Notes: a model not told the origin generated them from the letters alone. Positions 6,951 through 61,134 are shown, counted from the first letter of the stretch. The stretch is DNA of 64,000 nt from an uncultured delta proteobacterium (GCA_963755715.1 CAVWLW010000069.1:146890-210889); one strand, 5' to 3'. A program made the numbers and translations.

Positions 6951-7014
6951 CCATCAAATGGTCAATGGGCTGGAAAGTCATGATCATCAAATGTCGCCGG
7001 TTCCTGAGGATTAG

Positions 7015-12166: not shown

Positions 12167-12223
12167 CCACTGCGAACGCCTACGGCTTTCTACGAGAGCT
12201 TTTTCAGCGCAGCGATAGGCGAA

Positions 12224-13220: not shown

Positions 13221-13420
13221 TAATTTCCTTTCGGTAAGAAAAGTCTAGGGAATTTAAAGCCGTCTTACCGTAATCGGGGCTCAGATGTCCAGCTTAGGAG
13301 GGGTTATGTAGCGCTAAGGAATTTGCGTTTAGCGCACCATTCCTCACCTTTATCCGAGGACTAACTATGCGTTATCGGACGAAGTGACAAACGGAGCGCT
13401 TTATCGAAAAATCGCAGGGA

Positions 13421-14263: not shown

Positions 14264-14660
14264 CGGGTACTTGCTTCGATGAAGTGTTCTTCGGGTTTCA
14301 TGAAACTGCCTGACACATATGGACGCAACAACTGCGAACGATGAGACTTTTGCAAAGCTCTTGGTGTTCCACACGCGGAACACCGTCGCGCAATTCTTAA
14401 GCCAAGGGAATGGCTTGGGTAAATTGGCGAATAAGGAAACTTCTATCCCTCTAGGGTGCGCCATTACGCGGAGTTCGTGAGCTTGAAAATGCTCCGTTGT
14501 CCGTAATTGTCCGTAGTTGTATTGATGAGCTTCTCTGTTTGGTGAGTTCTAGATGAGATGAGAGATGGCTTAGAAAATTTAGCCGGCCATTAAAGATTGA
14601 AAATTGGGTCCAAAACTCGCGGACAGCGGAAATGCTGTCGGCGAATGGTTACTGAGGACA

Positions 14661-15566: not shown

Positions 15567-15662
15567 TTGAGTTCCCGGTTTTTCGGTTTAATTGTCCCTT
15601 TTTATGCTAAATCTCAGGAAATTAAAAGCTAATTTGTTGTCACGCTCGTAAAGGAGCTCTCA

Positions 15663-17518: not shown

Positions 17519-19473
17519 CAGCTTTCGTCGGCTGTCAAATTGCGATAGCGGGCCAACGCCAGCAGCGGAAAGTATTTGTCGTAACCGTGATATTTTAAGT
17601 AAAAGACCCGCGGGAATCCGGGCGCGTTGAAGTCGGGGTCACTCCAAAAGCCGTCCGACTCTTGGGTTTGCAAAAGGAACTCGATACCGAGCTGAACAGA
17701 CTCTGAGTGCACCTCACCGGCGCTCATCAAGCCCAACACAGCCCACGCCGTGTGAAAGGACGTGCTGCGCTCGGCGTGGTCGCGTTTGGACGGCTCAAAA
17801 TAAGTATCGCATCCTTCCCCCCAGCCGCCGTCGGCGCGCTGTATGCTCTTGAGCCAAGCGGCGCCGCGCCGCACCGACTCGTGTGTTGGGCTCACGCCTT
17901 CCTCTTCCAAAGCGATCAGCACGGACCAAGTGCCGTAGATATAATTCGTTCCCCACCGCCCGTACCATGAACCATCCGGCTGCTGTGAACGGAAAAGGTA
18001 TTCCAGACATTTTCCTTTGACGGATTTAATTTCCGGCCCATCAGCCAGCCGCGCCAGCAACATTAGACAGCGCGCGCTTACGTCCTCTGTGGGCGGATCT
18101 AGCAGGGCGCCGTGATCAGCGAAGGGAATTTCGTTGAGGTAGGTGTGATCGTTATCAGCATCAAACGAAGCAAAGCCGCCGTTTTTCGACTGCATGCCAC
18201 AAATCCATTCAGCTGCGCGCTGCACCGGATTGTCAAAACATCGTTCGCCGCTCTTATGCATCCCATAGGCAACCGCTGCCGTGTCGTCGAGATCGGGATA
18301 GTGAGAATTTATGAACTGAAAGGGCCATCCGCCGCCTCTCACTCTTGGCCTGTTAAAAGTCCAGTCTTGAGGCTCCTCCAGCAGTTGTTTTTCAGTCAGC
18401 CAAGCGAATGAATCTTTGACTGCGCTCAAGCTCCGCTCGTCGCCGATCTCCTGAAGCGCGATACAAGCCCACGCGCTATCCCACACCGGCGACATGCACG
18501 GCTGGCAATAAGCGCTCCGTTCACTGACCACCAACAGATCCTTGATCGCTTGTCTTTCCTGAGCTCGCAACGGATGGTTGGCTGGATAACCAAGAAACTC
18601 CAGCGCTTCGTAGGCATTGACCATCGCAGGAAAAATGGCCCCCAGCCCGCCGGCACCATTGAGCTGTTCCAATATCCAGGCTTCGGCCTTTTTGATGGCG
18701 CGGCGGCGAAGCCAGCGCGGCATTAATGGATATAGCTTGAGTCCCAGCCGATCCAGCACGAGCAAGACCCGATTAAGAACAGAACGAGTGGGAAAATAGC
18801 CGCTTCGTTGCCAAGGATCTCCGTCGAAGAGTTCTCGGATCGAGATTTTTTTTGGATTTCGCGCCCGCGCTTTGAACGTGTAGAGAATAAACAACGGAAC
18901 CATGACGGTGCGCGACCAATAAGAAACTTTGAACAGGTGAAAAGGAAACCAGCGCGGCAGTAAAACAATTTCCACCGGTAAAAATGGCACAGCGCGCCAG
19001 GGCAGCTGCTCGAAAATGGCGAGCGCAATCCGCGTAAATACGTTGGCCCGAGAGGCTCCGCCAAGGCGAAGAATCGCCTCCCGAGCTCTGACCATATGAG
19101 ACAGCTCAGGCGAGTCACCGGCAAGCTTGAGCGCATAGTAGCATTTCACCGAGCAACTGATTTCAGCGCCGCCGCCGTAGTAAAGCGGCCAACCGCCGCC
19201 TTCGAGTTGATGAGCGCGCAGATACGCAGCGAGCTTGCGTTCGAGCCCCTCGTCGAGCTCGTCGGCGTAATGCATCATCAGAATATACTCGGCAGGAATG
19301 GTGCAATCGGCCTCCAGCTCGAAGCACCAGTACCCTTCAGCGTGTTGCGCGCGGAGAAGCGCGCTCGCAGCACCCTCTATGGCGTGCTCGAGCTTGGCTA
19401 ACGGCAGTTTTTTAGAAAGACCGATCGTTTCTCGTTCTGGCGAATGATCGGCGTAGGCGATGCCGTCCCTCAT
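17518..19473 (-). CDS. shc: Squalene-hopene cyclase
   Basis: YPDLDDTAAV, QW repeats, WYGRWGTNYIYGTW and GFPRVFYLKYHGY. Start uncertain, ORF open from 19521. Confidence 0.97.
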   Translation of the reverse strand: MRDGIAYADHSPERETIGLSKKLPLAKLEHAIEGAASALLRAQHAEGYWCFELEADCTIPAEYILMMHYADELDEGLERKLAAYLRAHQLEGGGWPLYYGGGAEISCSVKCYYALKLAGDSPELSHMVRAREAILRLGGASRANVFTRIALAIFEQLPWRAVPFLPVEIVLLPRWFPFHLFKVSYWSRTVMVPLFILYTFKARARNPKKISIRELFDGDPWQRSGYFPTRSVLNRVLLVLDRLGLKLYPLMPRWLRRRAIKKAEAWILEQLNGAGGLGAIFPAMVNAYEALEFLGYPANHPLRAQERQAIKDLLVVSERSAYCQPCMSPVWDSAWACIALQEIGDERSLSAVKDSFAWLTEKQLLEEPQDWTFNRPRVRGGGWPFQFINSHYPDLDDTAAVAYGMHKSGERCFDNPVQRAAEWICGMQSKNGGFASFDADNDHTYLNEIPFADHGALLDPPTEDVSARCLMLLARLADGPEIKSVKGKCLEYLFRSQQPDGSWYGRWGTNYIYGTWSVLIALEEEGVSPTHESVRRGAAWLKSIQRADGGWGEGCDTYFEPSKRDHAERSTSFHTAWAVLGLMSAGEVHSESVQLGIEFLLQTQESDGFWSDPDFNAPGFPRVFYLKYHGYDKYFPLLALARYRNLTADES

Positions 19474-19498
19474 ACAGGAGATAATTCTCCCGGCGACA

Positions 19499-20680
19499 TC
19501 ACAGCGCTCTATCAACCTCAAGGTCGCTGGTTTCGGCCGGCGACCAGCGCGTTGAAGTGGGCGTTAAAGGTAGTCGGAACGCAGCAAGATAAAAAAGCAA
19601 CCTCAACAGACCATCGTTTTGGACCGCGAGCCGGCTCATCAAGACAGTCCCCTTGACGCTTAATCGTGATATCTTAACCTGACTTCCATCTGTGTAATCA
19701 AGGTTCTTGTTGATCTTGCGTAGGGTTAACAGAGCGAAGCCGATTGCCCAGAGACAGAAATTGCGGATCCCGACTTCCTGCCCGGGAATAAGTAGTGTGT
19801 ATGTCAAGGCGTTTTTCAAGTGTCCGTGGGCGATGCCGATAAGACGCTGAACCCCGCGCTGGAACTCTTCTCGTTTCTCTGCTCTCGTTAAATCGCGGAG
19901 ATCGAGTCCTTCTTCAGCGAAAATCTCTCGGGGCAACCAGCACGCGCCATTCCGATAGTCTTCCCAAACATCTTTCAGGATATTTGTCATCTGCAGGCCC
20001 TGGCCGAAGGAAATTGCCAACCCCATTAAGGCGTCATGACGCTTGGCGATTTCCGGCGAATGGAGACAAAACAGACTAGTCAGCATCTGGCCCACAACGC
20101 CTGCAACGTAATAGCAATAGCGATCGAGGTCCTCGAGAGTTTGCAGACCGTGTTTCTCATTTCGCAGCTGAAATTGTGTCATGCCTTGAGCCATGGTGCG
20201 GACGCAATGCTGCAATGCTTCGCGTTGAGCCGCAGAGAAGCTACGGGCGATTTGGATCACGCGAGGAGCGTTACGAATCAATTCGTGTTCGGCTGGCGAT
20301 GTTTGCTTCGAGAGCGACGCGCACAATTGCCGAGCGAACAGCGCGGCATTTTTTCCGCCGTCTAGGGCTCTTAAAAACTGCTGACAAAAATAGTTCTTTC
20401 GTGCGCCGTCCAAGAGCGGCTCGTCTTCGATGGTGTCAACGATGCGGCAAAGGAGATAGGCATTGGATACAACTCGGTAAAGCGCGGCAGGAAGCTGCGG
20501 AATGGTCAAGGCGAACGTGCGGGAGACTCCCTGCAACATGTCAGATTGAAAGTCATCGTCGCCGGGCCATGCCTTGTTCGGCCCGAGATCTACAGGATCC
20601 GAAAGAGGGGGCGAAGTAAAAGTAAATTGAGGCACGGCGCTTTCGTTTCTAAAAGCATCATGCTCGATCCGTCCCTTCAT
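19499..20680 (-). CDS. Single-enzyme squalene synthase (squalene/phytoene synthase family)
   Basis: VSRTFALTI, YLLCRIVDTIED, YCYYVAGVVG and LQMTNILKD motifs. Confidence 0.88.
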   Translation of the reverse strand: MKGRIEHDAFRNESAVPQFTFTSPPLSDPVDLGPNKAWPGDDDFQSDMLQGVSRTFALTIPQLPAALYRVVSNAYLLCRIVDTIEDEPLLDGARKNYFCQQFLRALDGGKNAALFARQLCASLSKQTSPAEHELIRNAPRVIQIARSFSAAQREALQHCVRTMAQGMTQFQLRNEKHGLQTLEDLDRYCYYVAGVVGQMLTSLFCLHSPEIAKRHDALMGLAISFGQGLQMTNILKDVWEDYRNGACWLPREIFAEEGLDLRDLTRAEKREEFQRGVQRLIGIAHGHLKNALTYTLLIPGQEVGIRNFCLWAIGFALLTLRKINKNLDYTDGSQVKISRLSVKGTVLMSRLAVQNDGLLRLLFYLAAFRLPLTPTSTRWSPAETSDLEVDRAL

Positions 20681-20766
20681 GGTTTACGTTCTCTTGCGGC
20701 CGTCGCTTTTACTTCTTAAATGGTAAATCTTTGCTCTCATTCTGAACGGCTCTTCACTGCGTGCGA

Positions 20767-21717
20767 CTACTCGGTTCTGCCAGTCACGTAACTGGCCATC
20801 TCCCGCAGCGGCTCCGCCGCTTTGCCGTAAGGCTCGATTTCCCTGAGGCATTCAGCAAAAAGGGCTTGTACGCGGTCCCTGGCCTTTGCTTTCCCGGCGA
20901 CCGCTAAATAATTAGCTATGCCCTTGTGGTTGTCCTCCGAGATTTCATGATCGTCCAATATGTCATCCGTAATCTGGAACGCCAGTCCCAAAGAGCGAGC
21001 GTATCGGGTAATCCTGTCGAGATCCTCGCGTGTGGCTCTTCCGATTATCGCTCCGACACGGGCTGCTGTCGTGATCAGCGCGCCTGTCTTCAGGCGATCG
21101 AGATCCTCCAAAACAGCTGGTGTTACCTTGCGTTTCTCCAATTCGAACTCTTTACTTTGTCCGCTGATCATTCCTCGTACCCCGGCTGCCCCGGATATCT
21201 CGCGAATGAGCTTTGCGATCAAAGCACCCCCCAAAATGCGTGTAACGGCGGGGTCAGACACGATAAAAAAAGCTTCCGTAAGTAAAGCATCGCCGGCGAG
21301 AAGCGCTATTGCCTCGCCAAAGCGCTTGTGGCAAGAAGGTTTTCCTCGACGGAAGTCGTCATTGTCGAGTGAAGGCAGGTCGTCGTGTATCAGCGAGTAG
21401 CAATGAATCAACTCAATCGCGCAGGCAAAAGACAGCATCGGAGCGCGTTTGGCGCCGAACAGTTCTCCGACCGCTAAAGTCAATGTGGGGCGGAACCGTT
21501 TCCCCGCATCCAGAACGCTATAACACATGGCTTGATGAAGCAGCGGTGGAATTTGGGGAACTCTTGTTTTCAGGTATTGGTCTAAAGCATCGTCAATGAG
21601 CGATTTACACTGATCAAAATATTGGCGGCTATCGATAGCTGTCTGAGCGGCATTCGTCTGGCCCGAGTCTTTATGAGTTCTCTTTTTGAGAGTGGTAATC
21701 GTGAAGTTGTATCCCAT
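20767..21717 (-). CDS. ispA: Farnesyl diphosphate synthase / geranyltranstransferase
   Basis: GKRFRP, SLIHDDLPSLDNDDFRRG, KTGALI and FQITDDILD motifs. Confidence 0.9.
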   Translation of the reverse strand: MGYNFTITTLKKRTHKDSGQTNAAQTAIDSRQYFDQCKSLIDDALDQYLKTRVPQIPPLLHQAMCYSVLDAGKRFRPTLTLAVGELFGAKRAPMLSFACAIELIHCYSLIHDDLPSLDNDDFRRGKPSCHKRFGEAIALLAGDALLTEAFFIVSDPAVTRILGGALIAKLIREISGAAGVRGMISGQSKEFELEKRKVTPAVLEDLDRLKTGALITTAARVGAIIGRATREDLDRITRYARSLGLAFQITDDILDDHEISEDNHKGIANYLAVAGKAKARDRVQALFAECLREIEPYGKAAEPLREMASYVTGRTE

Positions 21718-43041: not shown

Positions 43042-44688
43042 TTAGTAATCGATCACGATCCGATCGCGTACACCTTTGACGCCCGGCACGCCCAGAGTCG
43101 CCCGCACCGCGGCGAGTTTCTGTCGTGGCGTCGCCACCCGGCCTTCGAGGTAAACGGTGCCGTCATCGACGTAGGACACCTGCACACCGTCGATGGCGCG
43201 GTCGCGAATCGCCTTGTAGATCTCGATCTGCAATTTTCTTTCCGTCAACGCTTCGCCGTTTGGCGCTGGCGGGCGGCGCTTGATCACCATGCGCTTGTTA
43301 TTAGGTATCTCCGGGGAGCTTTTTGCCGGGGCATTTACCGATGGATCAGGAGCCTCGGTTTGTGCGCGCTCGGCTGTTTCCGGCGCCGGCACGATTTCGT
43401 CATTTGTGTTATTTGGCGCAGGCGCCGAGCTGTCAGGCGGGGGTGTGACGTGGGATACCGTGTCGTGATCGTTTTCCAGCTTGTTTGCCGCCAACGGCGC
43501 CGCGGGCTGCGCACCCTCATGCTGTCGCCCAAAGTCGGGCAACTTTGCTAAATATGCGCGCACGAGCGGGACGAGATTGGGTTGGTTCTCCATGCCGATA
43601 AACAGTGCCGCAGCAGCAATCAGGCAGAGGATCACCAAAGTACGAACGCCGCTGCGATGCGCGTGCCGCGGCTTATGCCAGCCGATATCTACGAAGAATG
43701 GCTCGAATTCCGGCTCTGATGACCGGCCGTTTTTTCGTTCGTTTTCGCGCTTCTCCTTTTTACTGCTCCGATGCGCGCTTGTTAATGGACTGCTCGATTC
43801 CCACGATCGAGGGATGGCCTCGTCTCGCGCCGTATTTTCTTTTTGAGGCGGAGAGGCGTGGGGTGTCTTCTCGGAGTGGTCGACGAGCTTCAACTCGTGG
43901 GCCGCCTCCTCTATGTCTGCCGTCGTCACGGAGCTTTTAGCCTTGGCGTAGGCGATCAATAACGCATTATCGCAGATTACGTTGATGAGGCGCGGGATGC
44001 CTTTCGAATAATGCGCAAGGCGCACGATCGATTCTGCATCGAACAAGTCTTGTCTTTCGCATTGGACAGTTTTGAGTCTGGAATCGACGTATGAGCTTAC
44101 CTCACCCTCCTGTAGGGGCTTCATCCTGCAACGAACAGCTACTCTTTGTTTAAGCTGAAGTAGACCGGCTCGATCGAGCTTTTCTTCAAGCTCGGGCTGA
44201 CCTACCAAAACAATTTGGATGAGCTTTTCTGTATTGGTCTCCAGATTGGAAAGAAGCCTGAGTTCTTCGAGCATCTCCTCGTCTAGGTTCTGAGCTTCAT
44301 CGATCAACAAAGAAACAATATCGCCCCTCTCGAGCTGTGCGATCAAATAGTCATAAAACTGCCCGATCATCGCCAACCGCTCGCCTGTAGGATTCGGCGA
44401 CAATCCTAGATCGCTCAGAGTGAGCCGGAGCACCTCGTTAAAAGTGAGATGGGGATCGAAAATCCAAGCCGTATGAACGTTGCGATCCAGGTTGCCCAGC
44501 AGCCTTTTCAGCAGAGTCGTTTTTCCCGTGCCCGGTTCGCCCGTGACAACGATGAAGCCCTTGCGGGCAGCGATGCCGTAACGAAGCGTCGCAAACGCTT
44601 CGTCATAGCAGGCGTTGGTAAAGAAAAATCGCGGATCCGGCGTGATATTGAAAGGCGACTCCGGAAATCCAAAGTGTTCGTTGTACAT
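43042..44688 (-). CDS. ExeA/GspA-like AAA ATPase with TM helix and C-terminal BON domain
   Basis: MYNEHFGFPESPFNITPDP, GEPGTGKT, IDEAQ and GIPRLINVICD. BON segment GTVYLEGRV..GVKGVRDRI. Confidence 0.88.
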   Translation of the reverse strand: MYNEHFGFPESPFNITPDPRFFFTNACYDEAFATLRYGIAARKGFIVVTGEPGTGKTTLLKRLLGNLDRNVHTAWIFDPHLTFNEVLRLTLSDLGLSPNPTGERLAMIGQFYDYLIAQLERGDIVSLLIDEAQNLDEEMLEELRLLSNLETNTEKLIQIVLVGQPELEEKLDRAGLLQLKQRVAVRCRMKPLQEGEVSSYVDSRLKTVQCERQDLFDAESIVRLAHYSKGIPRLINVICDNALLIAYAKAKSSVTTADIEEAAHELKLVDHSEKTPHASPPQKENTARDEAIPRSWESSSPLTSAHRSSKKEKRENERKNGRSSEPEFEPFFVDIGWHKPRHAHRSGVRTLVILCLIAAAALFIGMENQPNLVPLVRAYLAKLPDFGRQHEGAQPAAPLAANKLENDHDTVSHVTPPPDSSAPAPNNTNDEIVPAPETAERAQTEAPDPSVNAPAKSSPEIPNNKRMVIKRRPPAPNGEALTERKLQIEIYKAIRDRAIDGVQVSYVDDGTVYLEGRVATPRQKLAAVRATLGVPGVKGVRDRIVIDY

Positions 44689-44733
44689 GGTTTTTACCCT
44701 CGCGAAACGTCGTTCTCGCGCGGCGCGGATAAA

Positions 44734-46350
44734 CTAATTGAGCCGATCAAAAAAAGCATCTTCTTTGTGCACGTAACCGCGGACGCTTTCACTCTCCATA
44801 GAACGTATCTTGAAATACTCGCCGCTCCTTCCAACCAGTTGAATTCGTGTTCCGGGACGCAGCGTGGCGATAACGTCCGATTTCGCATCCGGCTTTTCCC
44901 GGACAAAGGAATTTCCGATGACTTCAAAACGAGCCCGCGACGATGCCGGCTCTCGGCTTGAGCTCTGATCCCTCACAGAGGCCCGCTGGACAGTTTCTGG
45001 CGGCACCGAGGGATCAATGCGTTTTGGCTTCAGACCGGCGAGATCTTTATCTTTGTTCTCGATTCTTTCCAGTCTACGCTTACTTGCCGGCGTCAAAGAT
45101 TTTTTGACGCTATAGGGGCGCGCGGACTCTAACACAGGCGGATCCTGTCGCTCCGTGAGTTTAACCGTATCTTCATCGCTTGGACCGGTCGTCAAAACAC
45201 GTAAGATTCGCTCCGGAAGCGGCACGACGGCCTCTTTGATTTTTTCTATTTCTATATTGTCGCTCCCAAGCGAGAGATAATTTGAATTCTGCCGGTAGGA
45301 GAAAAACTCGACGACTCCCAGGACGAGGACGAGCGTCGCAAACACGGCCGCCAGTCCTGCCCATCGCGTTTCGTTGGCGTGGAAAGGCGGAGTTGTCTGC
45401 GTGCGGCTTTCAAAATCCGCCTCTCCATCTTGAGCCATGCGGCTTTCGTTTATGATTTCTCGGCGGCAGTCGATCTCTTCAGCCGGAATTTCTAATTTTG
45501 GCGCTATCAGCGAGACAGATGGCAACGATTTGGGATAAGGCTCTTCAAGATGAAGGTCGGCGGCGGCCTCAGCGATCATCTCCGCGTTAACCACTTTTTG
45601 CGATTTTGCGTATGCAATAAGTAGCGCATTATCGCAAATCACATTAATGAGTCGAGGAATACCTTTGGAATAGTATGAAATCCGCTCGATGGCGGTGGTC
45701 GCAAAGATAGCTTTCCCTGAATAGCCCACGGCCGCGAGTCTAGAATCAATGTAGGAAGAAGTTTCATGGCTCTCGAGCGGCACGAGTCGAGAGCGAAGAA
45801 CGATCCGTTGTTTGAGCTGACGAAGTGACGGTTTTTCGAGCTTGGATTCGAATTCAGGTTGGCCAAGCAATACGATTTGGAGCAGCTTTACACCTGCGCT
45901 CTCCAGATTCGAAAGCAGTCTCAGCTCCTCAAGGACATCGTCACGCAGATCCTGCGCTTCGTCAAGCAATAAAGCGACAATGTGATCGTCTCTGAGCTGT
46001 TCGATCAAATAGTCATAAAACTGCCCGATCATCGCCAGTCGATCCGGTGTTGGACTCGGTGGCAATCCTAGATCGCTCAGAGTGAGCCGGAAAATCTCGT
46101 TAAAAGTGAGATGCGGATCGAAAATCCAAGCCGTGTGGACGTTCCGATCAAAGTTGCCCAGCAACCTTTTCAGCAGAGTTGTTTTTCCCGTTCCGGGTTC
46201 GCCTGTAACGACAATGAAGCCCTTGCGGGCTTCGATCCCGTAACGAAGCGTCGCAAACGCTTCGTCGTAGCAGGAGTTGGTAAAGAAAAATCGCGAGTCC
46301 GGCGTGACATTAAACGGCGGCTCGCGTAGCCCGAAGTAATCCTCGTACAT
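44734..46350 (-). CDS. ExeA/GspA-like AAA ATPase with TM helix and C-terminal SH3 domain
   Basis: Same ATPase motifs as 43042-44688. SH3b segment VREKPDAKSDVIATLRPG...GYVH. Confidence 0.88.
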   Translation of the reverse strand: MYEDYFGLREPPFNVTPDSRFFFTNSCYDEAFATLRYGIEARKGFIVVTGEPGTGKTTLLKRLLGNFDRNVHTAWIFDPHLTFNEIFRLTLSDLGLPPSPTPDRLAMIGQFYDYLIEQLRDDHIVALLLDEAQDLRDDVLEELRLLSNLESAGVKLLQIVLLGQPEFESKLEKPSLRQLKQRIVLRSRLVPLESHETSSYIDSRLAAVGYSGKAIFATTAIERISYYSKGIPRLINVICDNALLIAYAKSQKVVNAEMIAEAAADLHLEEPYPKSLPSVSLIAPKLEIPAEEIDCRREIINESRMAQDGEADFESRTQTTPPFHANETRWAGLAAVFATLVLVLGVVEFFSYRQNSNYLSLGSDNIEIEKIKEAVVPLPERILRVLTTGPSDEDTVKLTERQDPPVLESARPYSVKKSLTPASKRRLERIENKDKDLAGLKPKRIDPSVPPETVQRASVRDQSSSREPASSRARFEVIGNSFVREKPDAKSDVIATLRPGTRIQLVGRSGEYFKIRSMESESVRGYVHKEDAFFDRLN

Positions 46351-46606
46351 AAAATTTTCTCGGATGGACGATTGGGCGAAATTACACCATGCCACCGATA
46401 ACGGTTCGCCGGATCGACTTTAAACCGAACACCTTGGTTTCGGTCGGGCACCAAATCAGTGTCACGACCATCTCATGTCGATATAAAAGAAGCAAATTCG
46501 GTTCCTGCACTTGCCGGATCTATCCATGCGTGATTTGAAGTAAGCTGTCGGGCTTAAGTGAGAAGTCCGGCGTTTGACAAGTCGCTGTACGACTCGCGTT
46601 ATCCGG

Positions 46607-49339: not shown

Positions 49340-49543
49340 CTAAGTAAAGCTTTGTTGATAGCGCGCCGCGGCGGGTGAATCTCGCGCGGAGATCTCTTCT
49401 GTATGAAGCCCAAGTCTTTGCGCATCGACAAAGCAATAATAGCAAACAGTCATATCGAGTAGTCTAACGCCCGATTCTTCGCTCGTGACTCGGTACGCTT
49501 TGCCCATTATGAATTGGCCGCAGTGTTGGCATTGATAATTCAT
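49340..49543 (-). CDS. 67-aa CxxC...CxxC zinc-binding microprotein
   Basis: MNYQCQHCG...TVCYYC, directly after a sigma54 promoter. Confidence 0.7.
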   Translation of the reverse strand: MNYQCQHCGQFIMGKAYRVTSEESGVRLLDMTVCYYCFVDAQRLGLHTEEISARDSPAAARYQQSFT

Positions 49544-50174: not shown

Positions 50175-51539
50175 CTACAAAAGAGCTACATTGCCACGGC
50201 TGGTGTCTTTGAGCGCATTGCGCGTATCGAAAATCAATGGGCTGAACTCGGCGACCATGGCATAGTCGAACGCGGAATGGTCCGTCAGAATCGCGACTAA
50301 ATCCATAGACTGCAGCACACTCGGGGTCAGTTCGACTGACTTGAGAGTCTTGTCGTTAATTTGAACCATCGGGATATAAGGATCGGTGAAATGGATCGAC
50401 GCGCCCTTCTCATCCAGCCCCATTAAAATCTGCAGCGCGGGCGACTCTCGAACATCATTGGTGTCGCGTTTATAGGCGACTCCCAACGCAAGGATGTTGG
50501 CGCCGTTGAGACATTTACGTTTCCCATTGAGAGCATCCGAGATGCCCCGGATAACAAAGGCCGGCATCTGACTGTTGATGTGACCGGCGAGTTCTATCAA
50601 GCGCGGTTCGCATCCCTTCATGCGCGCCTTCCAAGTCAAATAATACGGGTCGACGGGAATGCAATGACCCCCGAGACCCGGCCCCGGATAAAAAGGCATA
50701 AAACCGAACGGTTTGGATTTTGCCGCCTCAATGACTTCCCAGACATTTATGCCAAAGCTGTGGCAGGCTAAAGCCATTTCGTTGGCGAGCGCGATATTCA
50801 CGCTGCGAAAGGTATTCTCCAAGAGCTTCACCATCTCGGCGCAATCGGTCGATGAGACGGAAAACACATTGTCGATAAATTGGCGATAGAACAATACGGC
50901 CATCTCGGCACAATGCGGAGTCACACCGCCGACGACCTTGGGAATATTTCGCGTGTTATAAGTTGAGTTTCCCGGATCGACCCGCTCCGGCGAATAAGCC
51001 AAAAAGAAATCCGTCCCAGCTCTTAACCCGGATTCCTCAAGAATAGGCAAAACCACTTCTCGCGAAGTTCCCGGATACGTCGTGCTCTCCAGGATGACCA
51101 GTTGCCCAGGCCGAATATGGTTCCGAATCACTTCGACGGCCGCGATCACGTAGGACAACTCGGGATCTTTGTTTTTTCTTAAGGGCGTTGGAACACAGAT
51201 GTTGATCGTGTCGAGATCCCCCACCGCGGACAGCGACTGAGTTGCCCGCAACTTGCCATCGGCGATAAACGACGCTACCGTTTCACTGGAGATATCGGGA
51301 ATATAAGAAATGCCGGCATTGATCGAATTGACTTTCTCCTTGATGAGATCAATACCGGTTACATGGAAACCTTCCCTGGCCATTTCCACCGCCAGCGGCA
51401 GACCGACGTAACCCAATCCTATAATACCGACTTTGGCTGAACGGTTTCGGATGCGCCGTTTTAGCTCGCGTCCCAGATTGGGCACTTGCGTCATTATTTT
51501 ATCGCCGTAAGACAGAACTGTCTCCCCTCGTAGTTCCAT
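50175..51539 (-). CDS. UDP-N-acetylhexosamine 6-dehydrogenase (WbpA/WecC family)
   Basis: GLGYVGLPLA, ICVPTP, LESTTYPG, YSPER, KLLEN and GGHCIPVDP. RBS AAGGAGG. Confidence 0.93.
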   Translation of the reverse strand: MELRGETVLSYGDKIMTQVPNLGRELKRRIRNRSAKVGIIGLGYVGLPLAVEMAREGFHVTGIDLIKEKVNSINAGISYIPDISSETVASFIADGKLRATQSLSAVGDLDTINICVPTPLRKNKDPELSYVIAAVEVIRNHIRPGQLVILESTTYPGTSREVVLPILEESGLRAGTDFFLAYSPERVDPGNSTYNTRNIPKVVGGVTPHCAEMAVLFYRQFIDNVFSVSSTDCAEMVKLLENTFRSVNIALANEMALACHSFGINVWEVIEAAKSKPFGFMPFYPGPGLGGHCIPVDPYYLTWKARMKGCEPRLIELAGHINSQMPAFVIRGISDALNGKRKCLNGANILALGVAYKRDTNDVRESPALQILMGLDEKGASIHFTDPYIPMVQINDKTLKSVELTPSVLQSMDLVAILTDHSAFDYAMVAEFSPLIFDTRNALKDTSRGNVALL

Positions 51540-51609
51540 TAACACTCCTCCTTAAAATGGTGATCGCCGGATTCGTTCGATAAGCGTCCGGTGCGCCGTT
51601 ATGCTGCGC

Positions 51610-52719
51610 TTATTGAATGCGGAATTGAGACGGCATGCATAGATTGATCGGCATGAGCAACAACTTGCATACCGACGGGATCGGCAGAGTCAAGGTTTCC
51701 CACGCAACGTTGAGAGTTCTTCGGCTTAAGAGAGATCCAAAGCTCGCGCCGTCCAACATATACTGATCGACGATTTTGTGGACCGCTTTGAGCGTTAAGT
51801 TGCCGAAAACAGGTTGGCCCAGGTAGAACCGCTGCAAAATGCCGTCGGGCAGTGAGATCAATCGTCGGCTTTCCAAATAACTCAACAAAAGATGAAGATA
51901 GGTCAGCGCTGTCGATTGATCGATCCAGGCAAAAATGTTTTCCCAACGCAGGCTGTCGCCCATCTGTTGCAAAAGAAAAATAAGGTCCAGGGCCGCGATC
52001 ATGCCGCCGACCTCTTTGAAGTCTTGCGCCCAATGGACCGCGAGATAAACAACCTGGAGTTCCGGAGAGAGTCGATGGACGGTCCTACCCTGAAACATAG
52101 ACGCTTTTATCTGCGAAGAAACGTGCGACGGTTGAAAAACACGGCCATGGCTCGCATGGTTTTTCGCCGAGATCAGACGATGATGAAGCTCGACCCAGAC
52201 CTGCTTCTCGTCGTGAAAAAACGGCATCACGTGATGGTGCGAATCGTATGTTTTATGCGGCGCATCGGAAGTTTGGCGGTAGCCAAGACCGTACAGCAAC
52301 GTTGCCATAGGGGCTAACGATTCTACCGGGACCAACAGGTCTATGTCGCGCATCGGTCGCAGGTGAAATTCGGGATAAAATTCTTCGGCGATCGAGATGC
52401 CCTTGAGCAGCGTAAGTTGGGGCACAGAACCGCAACTGGCATCGATGATCTCGGTCATGGCTTCGCGGTGATCCGCGCCGATCCATCGTGCCGTGAGATC
52501 GGCGGCTTTTAAAGACTGCCAATGGCGTGAAGTGAAGTTTTCTTGATTCTCTTTCGCGGCGTGAAAACAGGCCGGGCCCAAGCCGGATCGAATGATCCAA
52601 TCGAGCTGCGCGTCATCGAAATCGCCCAGCGAAAGATCGGTGCGCCCTCTCGAGACGGTCTCAAACAACGTCAGCAATTTCGCTCTTGCCGGCGAGCTTT
52701 CGCAGCGCATCGTACTCAC
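51610..52719 (-). CDS. Nucleotidyltransferase (NTP_transf_5-like)
   Basis: LLKG...FY...LRPMRDIDLLV, VELHHRL and LAVH motifs. Confidence 0.85.
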   Translation of the reverse strand: MSTMRCESSPARAKLLTLFETVSRGRTDLSLGDFDDAQLDWIIRSGLGPACFHAAKENQENFTSRHWQSLKAADLTARWIGADHREAMTEIIDASCGSVPQLTLLKGISIAEEFYPEFHLRPMRDIDLLVPVESLAPMATLLYGLGYRQTSDAPHKTYDSHHHVMPFFHDEKQVWVELHHRLISAKNHASHGRVFQPSHVSSQIKASMFQGRTVHRLSPELQVVYLAVHWAQDFKEVGGMIAALDLIFLLQQMGDSLRWENIFAWIDQSTALTYLHLLLSYLESRRLISLPDGILQRFYLGQPVFGNLTLKAVHKIVDQYMLDGASFGSLLSRRTLNVAWETLTLPIPSVCKLLLMPINLCMPSQFRIQ

Positions 52720-52742
52720 CCGATTGGGACTTGAAGAGAAAA

Positions 52743-53633
52743 TTACGAAAATAAACCCGGCGCGGCGCCATCATTCTGGCGCGAAAGCGCAGGTAGGGTC
52801 GACACAAGATCGCTTACCAGTTCACAGCTTGAACGAAGGTCGGCCGAACGAAGCTTGTAGCAAGCCGCGTTACAGGCGATTGCGATGGCGGCAGGCAAGC
52901 CGTCTTCCGTGTGTGCGAGTGGGTTTAGAGCCTGAGCAAATAATCGGGTGGCCGCTTCGCCCTTGCTGATACTTTGTAGCGTCGCACCTGTTTGGTCCTT
53001 GGGAGAATACTCCAGGAAAAACATCGCAGTCACAGGCACAGGTTGAGAAAGGGTTTGATTCGGCAGCATCGGCGTCGGCACGTGAAAAGTTCGAGATGTG
53101 CGAAGGATTTGGGCCGGCAGTGGATAGGCCTCCGGAGGCTCTCGTTTCAGGCATAGCGCGTGCGGATAGGGCGTCACCTTCATGGTTCGCAAATTTAAGG
53201 GAGCAAGCTCGTCGCTCAGATAACGGAAGCCGTGATGCAGCAAGCCCCAGGTCATGGTGGATTTGCCCTGTCCCGATGGGGCGACCAGGAGGATCGCATT
53301 GCCAGAAATTTCCAGCGCCGCCGCATGAACAAAGTAGAGGTCACCGCGCAGGCGCTGCAGCTCGATCGTCAGATCCTTTTCGAAAAGAAAAATAAGTTCG
53401 CCGTCATCGAGCGCCGGCAGCGGGGGACATCCTGCACGTAGGATGCAATATTCACCTCGCCCGTTGTTTTCGTTGATGGTGTATTCCAGGTTTGCACGGG
53501 CGTCATCTTGACGAAGCATCGAGCCATAGCCGTTTGCCAAAAGATTCCATATGGCGCGGTTCTGACATGAGATCTGCACGACGCGATCAAAAATAGAAAG
53601 CGTCAACAGACGTGAGGATGTTATTGAACTCAT
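52743..53633 (-). CDS. HPr-kinase-related Ser kinase
   Basis: VHAAAL, Walker A APSGQGKST and YLSDE. Confidence 0.85.
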   Translation of the reverse strand: MSSITSSRLLTLSIFDRVVQISCQNRAIWNLLANGYGSMLRQDDARANLEYTINENNGRGEYCILRAGCPPLPALDDGELIFLFEKDLTIELQRLRGDLYFVHAAALEISGNAILLVAPSGQGKSTMTWGLLHHGFRYLSDELAPLNLRTMKVTPYPHALCLKREPPEAYPLPAQILRTSRTFHVPTPMLPNQTLSQPVPVTAMFFLEYSPKDQTGATLQSISKGEAATRLFAQALNPLAHTEDGLPAAIAIACNAACYKLRSADLRSSCELVSDLVSTLPALSRQNDGAAPGLFS

Positions 53634-53731
53634 GTCGTGAAAGGCCGATGCCGCAAATGGTATTGACTCTGTACCCGCAGCGCCGCCATTCCAACAGTCG
53701 AAATTACCGCGCTGTGGTTAGCGAAGCTCCT

Positions 53732-53748
53732 GGCCCAGCGGCTGGGCC
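53732..53748 (-). other. GC-rich hairpin just after the peptide stop codon
   Basis: GGCCCAGC-G-GCTGGGCC with no U-tract. Confidence 0.55.
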
Positions 53749-53752
53749 GTCA

Positions 53753-53968
53753 TTAACTGCCGGCTTGCCCGGACTTGGATCCGTTCGGTTGCTGATTCTG
53801 ATCCGTTTCCTTGTCAACTTTGTAACTATCTCTGCTCTTAGTGCTCGATCTCGAAGCTCCGCTACCGGCTGCGGCAAAAGCCGGCAGTGCTTTCAGGGTC
53901 AAAATCATCGGCACCGCATACGCTGCTTTCTTGATAAAGTCTCGTCGCTCGGATTTTTCTTCAAACAT
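53753..53968 (-). CDS. 71-aa putative RiPP-like precursor with twin-arginine signal
   Basis: AAGGAG 7 nt before the ATG. Sequence MFEEKSERRDFIKKAAYAVPMILTLKALPAFAAAGSGASRSSTKSRDSYKVDKETDQNQQPNGSKSGQAGS*. It is hidden inside the 267-aa ORF call. Confidence 0.8.
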   Translation of the reverse strand: MFEEKSERRDFIKKAAYAVPMILTLKALPAFAAAGSGASRSSTKSRDSYKVDKETDQNQQPNGSKSGQAGS

Positions 53969-54029
53969 GGGATGTCTCCTTTCATTGAACATAAATTTAA
54001 ATTCATCGGGATTCGGCAAATTCACCCGT

Positions 54030-54359
54030 TCAACATTCTTCCAGGAGCTTCGATCGGCGCAACGTCTCGACCGTAGCCAGCACGTCCCTACGAGCCGTCG
54101 GGTAGTCGATCTCGAATGCTTGGCAAAGCTCGTGCGTGATTTCGTCCGACGTACGAATCCCATCACAACGCTCCCATATGTAGGTCGCGGTTTTGTTGAA
54201 CTGGTGAATAAACTCCTCCCGGCGGTCGAGCACAACCGTTTCTCCTTCAACCACGCGGGTTCGTATATCCGGCCGCCGCTTCGGTCGAAGCATCGAGGAT
54301 CGCGGCGCATCGAGATTGCCATGAGTTGTCCCCGCTGCTGTAGCTTTGTATTCCTGCAT
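54030..54359 (-). CDS. PqqD-family RiPP recognition element
   Basis: VEGETVVLD..IHQFNKTATYIWERCDG..I..LCQAFEID..TARRDV..LRRSKLL. RBS AAGGAGG. Confidence 0.9.
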   Translation of the reverse strand: MQEYKATAAGTTHGNLDAPRSSMLRPKRRPDIRTRVVEGETVVLDRREEFIHQFNKTATYIWERCDGIRTSDEITHELCQAFEIDYPTARRDVLATVETLRRSKLLEEC

Positions 54360-54536: not shown

Positions 54537-56465
54537 TCAAGCCGTTTCTCTGGCAATCCGCAAGTTGCGCAGGACGTCCTTTTTAGTTTGCTGACGACGC
54601 AGTTGTTCCGTGGTGTCCATGTCGGTTGGGCGAAAAGTCGGGACCATTTCGCAGAGCACCTCTAACGCCAGCCAAGGCTTGCCGTTGATCGCCAGCCGCT
54701 CCATTTCCTCGATCTTTCGGGTGACAGAATCTAAGTCGGCTACCCAGCCCGATTGCACTCGTTTAATCTTTTCGACTTCCGACGGGACGATCATTTCGTC
54801 CATCGCGACCAACTCCTCGCGCAGCTTTTCTCCCGGCCGCAGGCCGACGACTTGGATGGCGATCTCGTCGTCAGGGATAAAACCCGCGAGACGAATCAAA
54901 TGACGCGCCATTTCCATAAGCTTCACCTGCTCGCCCATCTCTAGCACGAATATGTCTCCGCCGCGCGCGAGGGCGCCCGACTGGAGCACCAATTGAACCG
55001 CCTCCGGAATCGTCATGAAGTAGCGGGTCATCTCGGGATGGGTAACCGTTACAGGGCCGCCCTGCTCGATTTGCTTAAGAAACAGGGGAACCACGCTGCC
55101 ATTGCTCCCCAGGACATTGCCAAAGCGCACGGCCGTGAATATCGTTTTGACTCCTTCAGCGCTCTTTGCCAACGCTTGGATGTACATTTCACCGACGCGT
55201 TTGGTCGCACCCATGACGTTGGTCGGGTTGACGGCTTTGTCGGTCGAAATTAGCACGAACCGCTCGATCTTTTTTCGCAGCGCGAGCTGAATCAGACGGT
55301 GAGTGCCGACGACGTTGTTCAGCACGGCTTCTCCCGGATGTTGCTCCATCATCGGCACATGCTTATATGCCGCCGCGTGAAAGATGATTTGCGGATTCTC
55401 TTGGAGAAAAACCTGTTCGATGGGCCTGATGTGCTTCACGTCAGCAAGCACGGAAACCCGGTTCACGTCGGGAAACGAACGCGCGAATTCCATGTCTATG
55501 TCGTAAAGCGCGCTTTCGCTCTTATCCAAAAGAATCAGACGCGCGGGCTCATATTTCGCGATCTGCCGAGCCAACTCAGAGCCGATCGATCCACCCGCAC
55601 CCGTCACCAGGATCCTCTTGCCCTTCACCAGGTTCTGCACGGGGCCGATATCCAACCCTACCGGCAACCGCTCCAGGAGATCTTCGATCGATAAATCTTG
55701 GATCTGGCTGGCGCTGACTTTGCCATTTTGCAGCTTCGCCACGCCCGGGAGAGTTTTGATCGGAATCTTGAACAGCTCCAAGGCTGTGAGAATTTGCCGG
55801 ACCAACGCAGGTGAAGCGCTCGGGATCGCGAGAAGAACTTCAGCAATCTTGTGCGATCGCAGAATCTTGGGGAGGTCTTGCCGCGAGCCGAGCACGGGCA
55901 GCCCATGAATACGCTGACCTATCTTGCTTGCACTGTCGTCGATAAAACCTATCGGTTCGTAATCATAGAGAGCGCCATTGTTTTTTATATCGCGAACGAT
56001 CATCTCGCCCGCATCTCCCGCCCCATAGATCAAAACACGCTTGCCTCGATGCACCTGCCCCACGCCATGATAGAGGCGGCGGGCCAGCCGACTGCCCCCC
56101 ATGAAGAAAATCAGCAGCAAGGAATCAATGATAAAAACCGACAGCGGATATTTTACGAGACCCATGCCCCAATGAACCAAAACATAAAAAACAGCGGTAC
56201 TCGAGAGAACTCCATAAATGACATTCCGGAGATCCCAAATACCGGTATAACGCCAGAGTCCTTGGTAAAGCCGCAGGGGAATAAAGATGACTCCTCGAAT
56301 CAGGACGAGCCAAGGGATCATCTGAATGAAAAGCGCGATTTCCTGAGCCGGAATCACGCCATCGAATCTAATCCAGAAAGCCAAATAATTGGCCAGCGCG
56401 ATCAATACGATGTGGAATCCGACGTTGAGAAATCGCCGAAATTTTAGAAGCATTGATTTGGTCAT
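54537..56465 (-). CDS. Membrane UDP-GlcNAc 4,6-dehydratase (CapD/PglF/WbpM family)
   Basis: Four TM helices, [34 protein letters not shown] and RFGNVLGS. Confidence 0.93.
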
Positions 56466-56652
56466 GAGAATATCTCCAATGCCGATCGTGAACTGCCTTA
56501 CTGGTGCGTCCGGCGGCAAGATTGAAAGGAAAAAATACTGCGAATCGGGAACTTTTCAGCTCCCGATCCTTCTACCCTAAGTGGTCATGCTAAGAGGAAA
56601 CGATTCGGAAAACGAAATAGAGGAAAGCATTCAGGAGACAAATAATTCGGGA

Positions 56653-59225: not shown

Positions 59226-59999
59226 TCAGACGGCACGTGCTATCCCCAAGACGTTCCAGGTCGTCTCGTCGGGGTTCCGATCGAATTCCGGGAAAGCTCC
59301 CAAGCGTACAGGAGCAAAGTCACAGCGTTCTAGAAACAAATCCAATTCGAGGGGGAAGAAAAAGCGCATCAGATGAGTCTCTTCGGTTTCGGATCTCAGC
59401 CGGTCTCCCTCCATTTTCCACAAGTGATAAGTCACTTTGCAGAGATGGCGCTGGACGTCAAGTTGCCCGGAGGCGAAGCGCAGTATTTGGCCGCCGTCCG
59501 TGGGGATCGATTTGACGCGATCGCTGGGCCCTTCTTTGAGCACTGCGGGACCGTACCACACGTCGAAAATAAGAAGGCCGCCTGATCGCACATGCTGCCT
59601 GGCGCTTCGAAGAGCCGCAAGCACGTTATGGTTTTCCAATTGATAGCCTAGCACCGCGAACATCATCAGCGCCGCATCAAACGATTGATCGACCCGTAAA
59701 CTGCAGATATCTCCTTCATAGAAAACAGCCTTGGCGTCGAGCTGCTGATCCGCTGCTTTCTTGCGGGCCCTATCAAGCATTGTATTTGAGCGGTCCACGC
59801 CGACAATTTCGTAACCCTGCTGGGCGAGTGGCAAGGCATGGTTTCCCGTGCCGCAGCCAAGATCCAAGATGTTCCGAACGGGTCGGTCGCCGTACGTTTT
59901 GAGCAACCTAGCGATCAATCCGCACTCTTCTAAATAGTCCTTGTCTTTGTAGAGGACATCATACGTACCCGCATATTCCGAACCAAAGACCCCGCTCAT
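59226..59999 (-). CDS. Class I SAM methyltransferase
   Basis: YDVLYKDKDY, ILDLGCGTG and FDVWYGPAV. ATGA overlap with the aminotransferase. Confidence 0.88.
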   Translation of the reverse strand: MSGVFGSEYAGTYDVLYKDKDYLEECGLIARLLKTYGDRPVRNILDLGCGTGNHALPLAQQGYEIVGVDRSNTMLDRARKKAADQQLDAKAVFYEGDICSLRVDQSFDAALMMFAVLGYQLENHNVLAALRSARQHVRSGGLLIFDVWYGPAVLKEGPSDRVKSIPTDGGQILRFASGQLDVQRHLCKVTYHLWKMEGDRLRSETEETHLMRFFFPLELDLFLERCDFAPVRLGAFPEFDRNPDETTWNVLGIARAV

Positions 60000-61134
60000 G
60001 AAAGGACCTCGTGCACGGCAGCGCACACCTCGTCCAGTTGCTCTGCTGTGAGCGCCAACCCCGAGGGGAAATATAATCCCTGACGAGCAATCCGCTCTGT
60101 TACTGGAAATCGCTCCTGCACGAATAATCCTCTCTGATGAAAAACTGGTTGCTCATGCAATCCCAAAAAAAATGGGCGAGTTTCTATGCCATGCTGTTTC
60201 AGCCTCTGCGCAAAAATAGTCGCGTCCATGCCGGTTTCTTCGGACAAGACGACACCGTACATCCAATAGACATTCCGGGCCCAGGGTTCCTCTACCGGCA
60301 ATTGCAAGCCCTTTAAGCCTGCGAGGCGCCGATTGTATTCCTGGCCGATCCAGCGCTTGCGCGCGACGATTTCCTCGAACCGTTCCAATTGAGCGAGGCC
60401 AAGTGCAGCCTGCAGGTTTGTAAGGCGAAAATTGAATCCGAGCTCCTCATGATGAAAACGCCGATTGGCTTGAAAACAGAGGTTACGCAAAGAGCGCGCC
60501 TTTTCAGCCAAGCTTGGGTCATCGGTGAGAACCATGCCACCCTCACCGGTCGTGATCAAGCTTATTAGCATAAAAACTGAAACAACTGAGCGTCCCGAAA
60601 TTACCGCAACGACGCCATGCGGAGTGGAGCGTGTCCCGTTTGGAGAGATATTCCGCCCCATGCACCTCCGCAGCGTCTTCAACAATGGCGAGGCCATGTT
60701 TCTCCGCCAGGTCCAGAATCGGATCCATATCCACCGGGTGTCCATATATATGTACCGGCATAATAGCGCGAGTCCGCGCGGTAATCTTCCTCTTCACTTG
60801 ATCGACATCCATGCACCACGTCCGAGGATCACAATCCACCAAAACCGGCACGCCGCCGTTATAAACAACCGCAAGAGCACAGGAAATGATCGTAAATGTC
60901 GGCATGATGACTTCATCGCCCGGCTTTAACCCGAGACAAGCTACCGACAACTTGGAGGGCGACTGTGCCGTTACTCACAGCAATCCCATAGCGCCGGCCG
61001 CAGTAAGCTGCCCATTTCTCTTCAAATTCTTCGATAAATCTGCCCGCCGAAGAAATCCAGCCGGTGCGTACACATTCCGAGACGTACTCTAACTCGCGTG
61101 CACCCAGATACGGCTCATTCACGGGTATCATCAC
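59996..61134 (-). CDS. DegT/DnrJ sugar aminotransferase (perosamine-synthase-like), two frameshifts
   Basis: Three consecutive frames: IPVNEP..GWISS..SNGTVAL, then PVHIYGHP..EDAAE..FSFYANK, then ITTGEGG. Shifts near 60950 and 60560. Confidence 0.85.

Follow-up and report, generated by a model that had tools for sequence, protein, structure and literature searches.

Clusters for Linear Polyphosphorylated Peptides (LPP) have been described in Bacillota, within loci for capsular polysaccharide (Popov et al., Nat Commun 2026, PMC13381572). Their precursors carry an N-terminal YxxPxVLxHQxIxFETxxS and a variable C-terminus, are 35-200 amino acids (aa) long and are encoded by one to three genes. The enzymes are an HprK-like kinase (LppK), a discrete recognition element (RRE; LppB) of the type used by peptides that are ribosomally synthesised and post-translationally modified (RiPPs), and a nucleoside triphosphate (NTP) transferase (LppN), with processing and export by a SipW-like signal peptidase (LppS) and an MsbA-like pump (LppD) (PMC13381572). 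The cassette compared here with these clusters consists of genes for a PqqD-type RRE, a 71-aa precursor peptide, an HprK-like kinase and a PF14907 enzyme, and lies on the minus strand at 51610-54359 of a stretch of DNA from an uncultured delta proteobacterium (CAVWLW010000069.1:146890-210889; GCA_963755715.1). The whole stretch of 64,000 nucleotides (nt), which is the part of the genome covered, is called the window, and positions are counted from its first letter.

In LPP clusters, LppK adds one to four phosphates to core Ser3 and LppS cleaves after Thr-1 in an LppB-dependent manner; a SipW-like leader peptidase is the marker that defines the family, and LPP and paeninodins are stated to be restricted to Bacillota (PMC13381572). 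None of the terms twin-arginine, signal peptide, Proteobacteria and Gram-negative occurs in the text of that paper. For paeninodin and pseudomycoidin, an HprK-family kinase places phosphate, at times several, on a precursor Ser, and a PqqD-type B1 protein reads a [Y/W]xxP leader, as is proposed here for the cassette RRE (PMC6993621; PMC5067487). The addition of one or two hexoses to the pseudomycoidin phosphoserine depends on PsmN, whose D134A D136A variant, changed in predicted metal-binding residues, is inactive (PMC6993621). The initial annotation of the window knew of no defined substrate for neighbourhoods of this kind, a statement outdated since the 2026 LPP paper (PMC13381572).

The cassette has in common with LPP clusters a discrete PqqD-type RRE encoded beside the precursor gene, an HprK-like kinase (likened by family and fold), an NTP transferase (likened to LppN and PsmN by description), one to three precursor genes with a YxxPx[VI]L leader and a hypervariable tail, a Ser 18-19 residues past the Tyr and near the leader end, and the lack of a macrolactam cyclase. 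The capsule/polysaccharide setting is shared by the cassette of this window. LppN and PsmN, which the papers call uncharacterised NTP transferases, presumably belong to PF14907. Unlike LPP clusters, neither an LppS-type SipW-like peptidase nor an LppD-type MsbA-like exporter was found in the scanned open reading frames (ORFs) of the window or recurrently in 80 related loci. The cassette leader outside YxxPx[IV]L is unrelated to the xHQxIxFETxxS of LPP and is twin-arginine-like with a small-x-Ala site, and the hosts carry many non-Bacillota labels, whereas LPP has been called Bacillota-restricted.

The cassette is a variant of known LPP-type logic and no new class; it is widespread, unannotated and without the marker gene that defines LPP. 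On balance it is probably a leader-guided peptide-modification cassette and the non-Bacillota counterpart of the LPP pathway. The same RRE/kinase/transferase logic is widespread beyond Bacillota labels in this four-gene form, which would escape genome mining that relies on a protease or a cyclase. The initial proposal that the peptide is the substrate of a cyclase-less, RRE-guided phosphorylation appears well supported by the comparative evidence and the LPP precedent (PMC13381572). The further initial proposals, of nucleotidylation or glycosylation from NDP-sugars of the operon, of export and of a primer or signal function, are more conjectural.

The four genes and their conservation in related loci

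The RRE gene (54030-54359, minus strand, 109 aa) matched PF05402 (E 2.1e-16), and the Shine-Dalgarno (SD) sequence AAAGGAGG precedes its ATG. It is followed by the precursor peptide gene (53753-53968, minus strand, 71 aa and stop), with the SD sequence AAAGGAGA 6 nt 5' of the ATG, by the gene of the HprK-like P-loop kinase (52743-53633, minus strand, 296 aa; TIGR04352 HprK_rel_A and Hpr_kinase_C) and by that of the nucleotidyltransferase-fold enzyme (51610-52719, minus strand, 369 aa; PF14907, NTP_transf_5, E 1.2e-29). The coordinates, shared orientation and families all agreed with the initial annotation, which had placed four co-oriented genes between a CapD-type dehydratase and a UDP-HexNAc dehydrogenase. 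Its statement that no lasso cyclase, B2 peptidase, radical SAM or YcaO gene is adjacent also held. Scanning 53 window ORFs against NCBIfam or Pfam, from a listing of 79 ORFs of at least 130 aa plus small local ones, gave no Asn-synthetase-like cyclase, transglutaminase-type B2 peptidase or YcaO, and the sole radical SAM protein was HpnH (3524-4606) in a hopanoid cluster ~47 kb off. A SipW-like signal peptidase or MsbA-like exporter was likewise not seen among these 53 ORFs.

Kinase relatives numbered 1346 at E <=1e-3 among the scored candidates of a 5.8-billion-protein set; nearly all were unnamed, and they bear the precomputed Pfam accession PF27840.1. Two proteins, P0001 and P0002, were near-identical (93-94% identity). 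A profile of 24 kinases (alignment A1) led to 80 loci from species-representative genomes (numbered with L below), with record titles naming Binatia, delta-, gamma-, beta- and alphaproteobacterial groups, Rokubacteria/Methylomirabilota, Acidobacteriota, Planctomycetes, Verrucomicrobia, Bacteroidota and Acidimicrobiia. Of these, 45 loci, in which the DNA reaches 2.5 kb or further past the kinase in each direction, were taken as full. Within 3 kb of the kinase, an RRE was found in 44 and a peptide in 43 of the 45 full loci, so that the conserved small ORF which the initial annotation had suggested looking for is present, while a member of the transferase cluster occurred in 34.

The peptides were searched for by phmmer with the window's own proteins and then with a hidden Markov model (HMM) of the peptide N-terminal part. 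With the leader HMM, 66 of the 80 loci gave 73 peptide copies, nearly all next to the kinase, plus the one in the window (E 1e-17); the small ORF is therefore not a chance ORF. One peptide gene was present in 61 loci, two in 3 loci and three in 2 loci. Among the 14 loci with no peptide match, 9 have the kinase start within 300 nt of a contig end, and in the other 5 (L014, L039, L044, L058 and L069) the RRE adjoins the kinase. A relaxed peptide search in these five and in L017 gave nothing credible. The commonest gene orders were RRE-peptide-kinase (8 loci) and the same with a divergent transferase upstream (8 loci), and the window's order of RRE-peptide-kinase-transferase was seen in 5 loci.

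No further gene family accompanied the module. BLAST clustering of 839 selected ORFs of the 80 loci gave no other family in more than 9 loci and no SipW-like peptidase cluster, and the one ABC_tran cluster occurred in just 3 loci. When the 125 ORFs closest to the kinase, out of 484 within 5 kb, were scanned with Pfam, no family had more than 6 members. Signal peptidase, ABC exporter, Asn synthase and transglutaminase were absent among the 25 most-matched families of that scan (at least 2 members each), and GATase_7 was found in 2 of the 125 ORFs.

The neighbours ranged from exosortase, PEP-CTERM and Poly_export genes to polA, ileS, ribF and murJ. A CapD-type neighbour was kept in L001, L002, L022 and L027, and a dehydrogenase neighbour in L001, L002, L006-L008, L019 and L022. 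Since the neighbours vary and the flanks are kept only in the closest loci, the cassette is a self-contained four-gene module that lies only sometimes in polysaccharide loci. The polysaccharide-operon setting described initially thus stands for the window and its closest loci, while the CapD/dehydrogenase flank is not kept elsewhere.

The precursor peptide

The 71-aa peptide had no family match in Pfam or NCBIfam. Its relatives in the 5.8-billion-protein set numbered 307, and among the 120 listed all were unnamed or 'hypothetical' and without a Pfam domain. The leader has a constant length, with the consensus [ST]-[RK]-R-x-F-[LVI]-K-K-[AT]-A-Y-x-x-P-x-[IV]-L-T-L-x-A-x-P-[SA]-[FL]-A-x-x-G-S. 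In the window, the leader or signal-peptide-like part (residues 1-32, 53873-53968, minus strand) contains E-R-R-D-F-I-K-K with R8 and R9, followed by Y17-A-V-P20-M-I-L and P29-A-F-A32. In an alignment of 61 sequences (A3), R9, P20, G35 and S36 (window numbering) were invariant, and F11, Y17, T24, P29 and A32 were each conserved in at least 90%; as A3 was chosen by the score of an HMM from a G-S-selected alignment, the invariance of G-S depends partly on that selection. Column counts over 66 sequences gave S/T in 52, R/K in 66, R in 66, F in 59, L/V/I in 66 and K/R in 56 for the Arg motif, and A32 in 64 and S/A30 in 62.

The Arg motif is followed by a moderately hydrophobic stretch of ~18 residues, with a mean hydropathy of 1.40 over 70 copies. 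The mean Kyte-Doolittle hydropathy of window residues 15-32 was 1.47. The conserved cleavage-like site that can be read from the alignment is [SA]30-x-A32. In some leaders, three residues are inserted before the Tyr (e.g. K-T-A-A-A-V-A-Y-V-A-P); these were observed at lower profile scores, as two or three scattered copies in L026 (5366-7585) and L042 (6898-7583) and as a single copy in L048 (2614-2769).

The sequence past G-S diverges completely between copies. In the window the variable tail (core) covers residues 33-71 (53756-53872, minus strand), and across the 73 copies, with tails <200 aa, this part was hypervariable, with a median of 32 aa (range 5-92), a composition of G 16.7%, P 10.6%, R 9.4% and K 9.3%, and a median net charge of +3. 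In sequence layout, a leader that stays constant before a hypervariable tail, at times repeated in tandem, is the build of a RiPP precursor.

Two tail sub-families were noted. A GNNGVGNG.DPQPPGNPP[IV]NDGPGTGPGNPG-type core is shared across distant labels (Acidimicrobiia, Syntrophobacteraceae, Acidiferrales and Bacteroidota), and the NDGPGTGPGNPG-type tails lie at L005 6395-6709, L019 164-370, L022 6693-6911, L025 6600-6887 and L077 6624-6833. A GNNGIGQEKRG..DGPPPGLAKKP-type core was found in L046, L049, L050 and L073, which have gammaproteobacterial labels, and some other tails are runs of Lys, Arg and His.

When 74 copies were read by eye, Ser stood at position 36 in all and Gly preceded it in 72. 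Ser36 (codon 53861-53863, minus strand, beside Gly35) is Tyr17+19, and the phosphorylated Ser3 of LppA is Tyr-16 +18 in LppA numbering (PMC13381572). Because it is invariant and stands at an LPP-like spacing from the Tyr, while only 7 of the 73 tails end in Ser, Ser36, just past the leader, is the likely phospho-acceptor, not Ser71. The C-terminal Ser71 named as acceptor in the initial annotation was rejected as a family feature, and Ser36 gives a precise candidate in its place.

Cleavage directly before G-S, which the window's own F-A-A-A-G-S would allow in an A-x-A reading, was rejected for the family. The residue before Gly35 was Ala or Ser in 45 of 66 sequences and often Asn, Gln, Arg, Leu or Pro; because it is often not small, a cut at this place is impossible family-wide.

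The RRE and its contact with the leader

The best NCBIfam match of the window RRE was NF033530 (lasso_PqqD_Strm, 5e-11, below the cut-off), a model matched by all 62 of 62 RRE family members. A profile of these 62 matched the actinobacterial lasso B1 proteins TfuB1 (1.5e-15) and TbiB1 (2.2e-13) and the LppB chain 9x8z_B (2.3e-09). In the LppB crystal structure, the side chains of N33 and D70 fix the Pro kink and hydrogen-bond the Tyr of YxxP (PMC13381572). Counted along the printed alignment, Asn55 and Asp92 of the window RRE align with these two residues, and they were conserved in 61 and 55 of the 62 family members, respectively.

Pairing of leader and RRE in 70 cases gave Tyr with Asp in 63, Tyr with Glu in 2, Phe with Ala in 3, Val with Ala in 1 and Phe with Glu in 1. 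Every RRE with Ala92 (4 pairs) sits beside a Phe or Val leader, and no Tyr/Ala pair was found. This Tyr/Asp covariation is the change that would be expected if the LppB-type contact exists here. The Ala92 pairs come from L012, L020, L024 and L033, all labelled Rokubacteria/Methylomirabilia. In these four loci the peptide gene is not flanked by RRE and kinase but lies upstream of a divergent transferase, and in L039, of the same label group, Asp92 of the RRE is Ala and no peptide was found. What the analysis shows is the gene set and how it is conserved, the division of the peptide into leader and tail, and the covariation of RRE and leader.

The initial annotation had also suggested co-folding the RRE with the peptide. 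With each partner given its own alignment, the RRE and peptide residues 1-45 reached a score of 0.58, compared with 0.00 for the best of 3 controls; the runs agreed in at least 90% of contacts, with a partner pLDDT of at least 55. The mark used is reached by 116 of 157 solved complexes and by 2 of 215 mismatched pairs, and the band at or below 0.60 holds 18 of the 157 solved complexes and both passing mismatches. The support from this co-fold is weak. It shows likeness, not binding, and the pass may reflect likeness only because RRE-leader complexes have already been solved.

Kinase and transferase

The window kinase matched TIGR04352 (E 1.8e-21; 76.5 bits against a cut-off of 200) and Hpr_kinase_C (E 0.0016), and the Walker A residues S120, G123, K124 and S125 were invariant in 24 sequences. 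Its AlphaFold2 model (pLDDT 88.8) gave Foldseek matches to PEP carboxykinases (2e-07) and to the HPr kinases 3tqf (3.7e-05) and 1knx (1.2e-04).

In the transferase, K106, G107, R121, D125, D127 and H179 were invariant over 46-54 sequences. The model (pLDDT 92.3) gave weak fold matches to ANT(2'')-Ia, LnuA and MenT-type nucleotidyltransferases (best E 4.3e-03), with none at E <=1e-3, and the sequence had no match in the PDB at E <=1. From their conserved residues and predicted folds, both enzymes look intact and active. By analogy, D125-x-D127 may correspond to D134/D136 of PsmN.

Among the matches listed in the literature for PF14907 was a phosphonates paper, without NTP_transf_5 or PF27840, and the RRE-mining papers PMC7470986 and PMC12710340 do not contain 'kinase' or 'HPr'.

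Proposed pathway and the signal-peptide reading

The chemical steps, acceptor, export route, cleavage and role that we infer for the module are as follows. The 71-aa precursor would be made in the cytoplasm, where the PqqD-type RRE would grip Y17-x-x-P20-x-I-L of the leader and present the peptide to the HprK-like kinase, which would phosphorylate Ser36, perhaps several times as in LPP. The PF14907 enzyme could then add a further group to the phosphate, by analogy with PsmN a hexose or other sugar, possibly from the NDP-sugars of the flanking genes. The leader would next act as a twin-arginine translocation (Tat) or Sec signal for export by the general machinery of the cell, and signal peptidase I would cut after [SA]-x-A32, so that the product would start at residue 33. 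This phospho(glyco)peptide product would be short, disordered and mostly basic; once outside the cytoplasm, it may act on exopolysaccharide or together with it.

The leader is proposed as an export signal because the processing and export parts of LPP are missing here while the leader resembles a twin-arginine signal. The twin-arginine consensus is S/T-R-R-x-F-L-K, and the family motif, the hydrophobic stretch and the small-x-Ala site of that pattern are all present. TorD, DmsD and NapD are cytoplasmic chaperones that bind twin-arginine signal peptides before export. A small cytoplasmic protein that binds the signal region before export is what is proposed here as well; unlike in those systems, where the cargo is a folded cofactor enzyme, the binder is a PqqD-fold RRE and the peptide carried is short and disordered.

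It is tentatively suggested that the leader doubles as RiPP leader and Tat export signal, that the RRE holds it, in the manner of Tat proofreading, until Ser36 is decorated, and that general export and signal peptidase replace the LPP protease and pump. A full-text literature search, which gave one unrelated paper, found no description of a leader that doubles as a signal peptide in an RRE-dependent precursor. The module offers an idea of how a RiPP pathway could do without its own protease and pump. If the dual leader/Tat reading is true, many non-Bacillota phyla would have secreted phospho(glyco)peptides of a widespread class that has gone unannotated, and the tails, hypervariable and either basic or rich in Gly and Pro, may have their function in the extracellular matrix. 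Should the products be active in the exopolysaccharide matrix, they would bear on the biofilm biology of soil and sediment bacteria.

Several observations weigh against the proposed pathway, and those on the signal peptide bear on its export part. Pfam TAT_signal (PF10518) matched only 4 of 61 peptides (best E 0.02), and the window peptide, which has Glu and not Ser or Thr before its Arg pair, gave just a weak match to PF10399 (Rieske Tat-signal, E 0.054) and none in NCBIfam. The hydrophobic stretch is unusually conserved for signal peptides and could perhaps reflect enzyme recognition alone, and the residue before Gly35, which is often not small, excludes a family-wide cut directly before G-S.

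As for the modification steps, the RRE family is nearer to actinobacterial lasso B1 proteins than to LppB. The leader/RRE covariation may be one evolutionary event, since it comes from one label group, and one Phe leader is paired with a Glu RRE (L021). The transferase is missing from the available DNA of 11 of the 45 full loci, 2 of the 45 have no detectable peptide, and the neighbours in most loci are non-polysaccharide genes, polA, ileS, ribF and murJ among them. In the LPP system itself, deletion of lppN had no visible effect in a heterologous host, and the final product and its role have not yet been identified (PMC13381572).

Alternative explanations

The rival that survives best, although it is unlikely, is an uncleaved signal-anchor, i.e. 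a membrane-tethered protein with Ser36 phospho-glycosylated at the membrane boundary that serves as anchor or primer for local polysaccharide. The ~18-residue hydrophobic stretch is far better conserved than in ordinary signal peptides, which would suit an anchor, but the conserved Pro29-[SA]-x-Ala32 looks like a signal-peptidase I site, and a helix with the conserved Pro20 and often Lys or Gln at 26 is weak for a stable anchor. The local setting fits a primer in the window and its closest relatives, where the cassette lies between NDP-sugar enzymes, and exosortase, PEP-CTERM or Poly_export genes lie near some other loci; most loci, however, have no adjoining polysaccharide genes. PsmN-type enzymes put hexoses on phosphoserine (PMC6993621), which suits a glycosylated primer, yet hypervariable tails would be needless for a mere primer.

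The cleaved and exported phospho(glyco)peptide is preferred over that reading, and it is also preferred over one in which the kinase and transferase act on a sugar, a polymer or another protein, with the RRE and peptide paired for regulation or scaffolding. The substrates of HprK-type kinases and of nucleotidyltransferases are of many kinds, and both the lppN deletion that changed nothing in the LPP host (PMC13381572) and the full loci lacking the transferase fit such a role. In the LPP and paeninodin-type systems, however, the homologous kinase phosphorylates the peptide itself (PMC13381572; PMC6993621). The invariant Ser at an LPP-like distance from YxxP and the joint presence of peptide, RRE and kinase in 43-44 of the 45 full loci, whatever their neighbours, further argue against it, and this alternative is judged improbable.

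That the peptide is a lasso precursor served by a cyclase and a B2 peptidase from another part of the genome is very improbable: the RRE family's best matches are lasso B1 proteins, and the kinase and transferase are typical tailoring enzymes of paeninodin-type lasso clusters (PMC13381572; PMC6993621), but no cyclase or B2 family lies nearby or recurs in the 80 loci (the view of the cassette's own genome being 64 kb), core positions 7-9 have Asp or Glu at chance level (12 or 19 of 62 for two possible core starts, compared with ~25% expected), the penultimate-Thr leader rule (PMC10368454) misfits the residues before Gly35, tails of up to 92 aa rich in Gly, Pro and Lys are unlike lasso cores, and paeninodin and pseudomycoidin clusters have a cyclase, a B2 peptidase, an ABC exporter and a C-terminal Ser acceptor (PMC6993621; PMC5067487), whereas the cassette has no cyclase and its invariant Ser adjoins the leader.

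Relation to HPr-rel-A systems

The NCBIfam HPr-rel-A models TIGR04352 (HprK-related kinase A) and TIGR04353 (PqqD family peptide chaperone) were the best or a good match for 24 of 24 kinases (best E 5.9e-23) and 33 of 62 RREs, far below the cut-offs in each case, and the window RRE itself had no TIGR04353 match at E <=0.01. A full-text literature search for HPr-rel-A, HprK-related kinase A, TIGR04352 or TIGR04353 found no publication. The cassette peptide offers a candidate substrate type for this uncharacterised 'HPr-rel-A system'.

A true TIGR04352 member (323.9 bits) was found at L081 3839-6918, on the Vibrio alfacsensis plasmid NZ_CP140104.1. There, a gene of the nucleotidyltransferase family follows the kinase gene, and a 274-aa hypothetical protein, the candidate substrate at that locus, is encoded before the kinase. 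Residues 35-63 of the 274-aa protein aligned with the leader profile (hhalign E 7.3e-05, probability 62%), and its N-terminus has an Arg-Arg-Arg-Phe motif followed by a hydrophobic stretch, without the Tyr; the leader HMM gave no match to it. The 84-aa ORF between this protein and the kinase was not recognisably PqqD (E 0.34). These sequence features hint that the wider HPr-rel-A family may act on signal-bearing proteins as well as peptides.

Flanking genes and other features of the window

Upstream of the cassette lies a membrane-bound CapD/Polysacc_synt_2-type NDP-sugar dehydratase gene (54537-56519, minus strand; PF02719, E 8e-116), and downstream a gene for a nucleotide-sugar dehydrogenase of UDP-ManNAc type (50175-51545, minus strand; TIGR03026, 433 bits). 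Farther along the same strand are genes for a GDP-mannose dehydratase, a GDP-fucose synthase, a methyltransferase and a DegT aminotransferase, and on the other side of the cassette those for a histidine kinase, a sigma-54 response regulator and two PEP-CTERM/XrtA-system-type ATPases.

Between 49500 and 57000, neither promoter-like sites (4, compared with 5.2 in shuffles) nor terminator-like sites (7, compared with 9.0) were enriched. The 136-nt spacer after the peptide gene folded no better than shuffles (z -0.48). In the 119 nt before the kinase gene, a few bases past the peptide stop, there is a 7-bp GC-rich hairpin (GGCCCAG/CUGGGCC, 53732-53748, minus strand) without a U tract.

The DegT/DnrJ/EryC1 aminotransferase gene of the polysaccharide operon (59996-60950, minus strand) is split over two overlapping frames, with ORF 60543-60950 covering positions 57-174 of the Pfam profile and ORF 59996-60745 covering 172-359. 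The split reflects a frameshift, which is real or due to a sequencing error. In the interval between the dehydrogenase and the histidine kinase, a 67-aa ORF (49340-49543, minus strand) without a family match has C-x-x-C near its N-terminus and C-Y-Y-C later. The XrtA/PEP-CTERM-system-type ATPases are two tandem paralogues (43042-46395, minus strand; 255.7 and 260.3 bits, cut-off 324.5), one with a C-terminal BON domain and the other with an SH3_3 domain, and no exosortase gene was seen among the scanned window ORFs.

The hopanoid gene cluster (3524-21717) contains hpnH, hpnA, hpnB, hpnG and genes for a squalene-hopene cyclase, a squalene-synthase-like protein and a farnesyl diphosphate synthase. 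In a 1328-aa ORF (7015-11001, minus strand), an FGGY sugar kinase is joined to a D-2-hydroxyacid dehydrogenase and to a class II aldolase/epimerase-like part, and a nearby 338-aa ORF (12204-13220, minus strand) matches just the N-terminal half of the same type of FGGY kinase.

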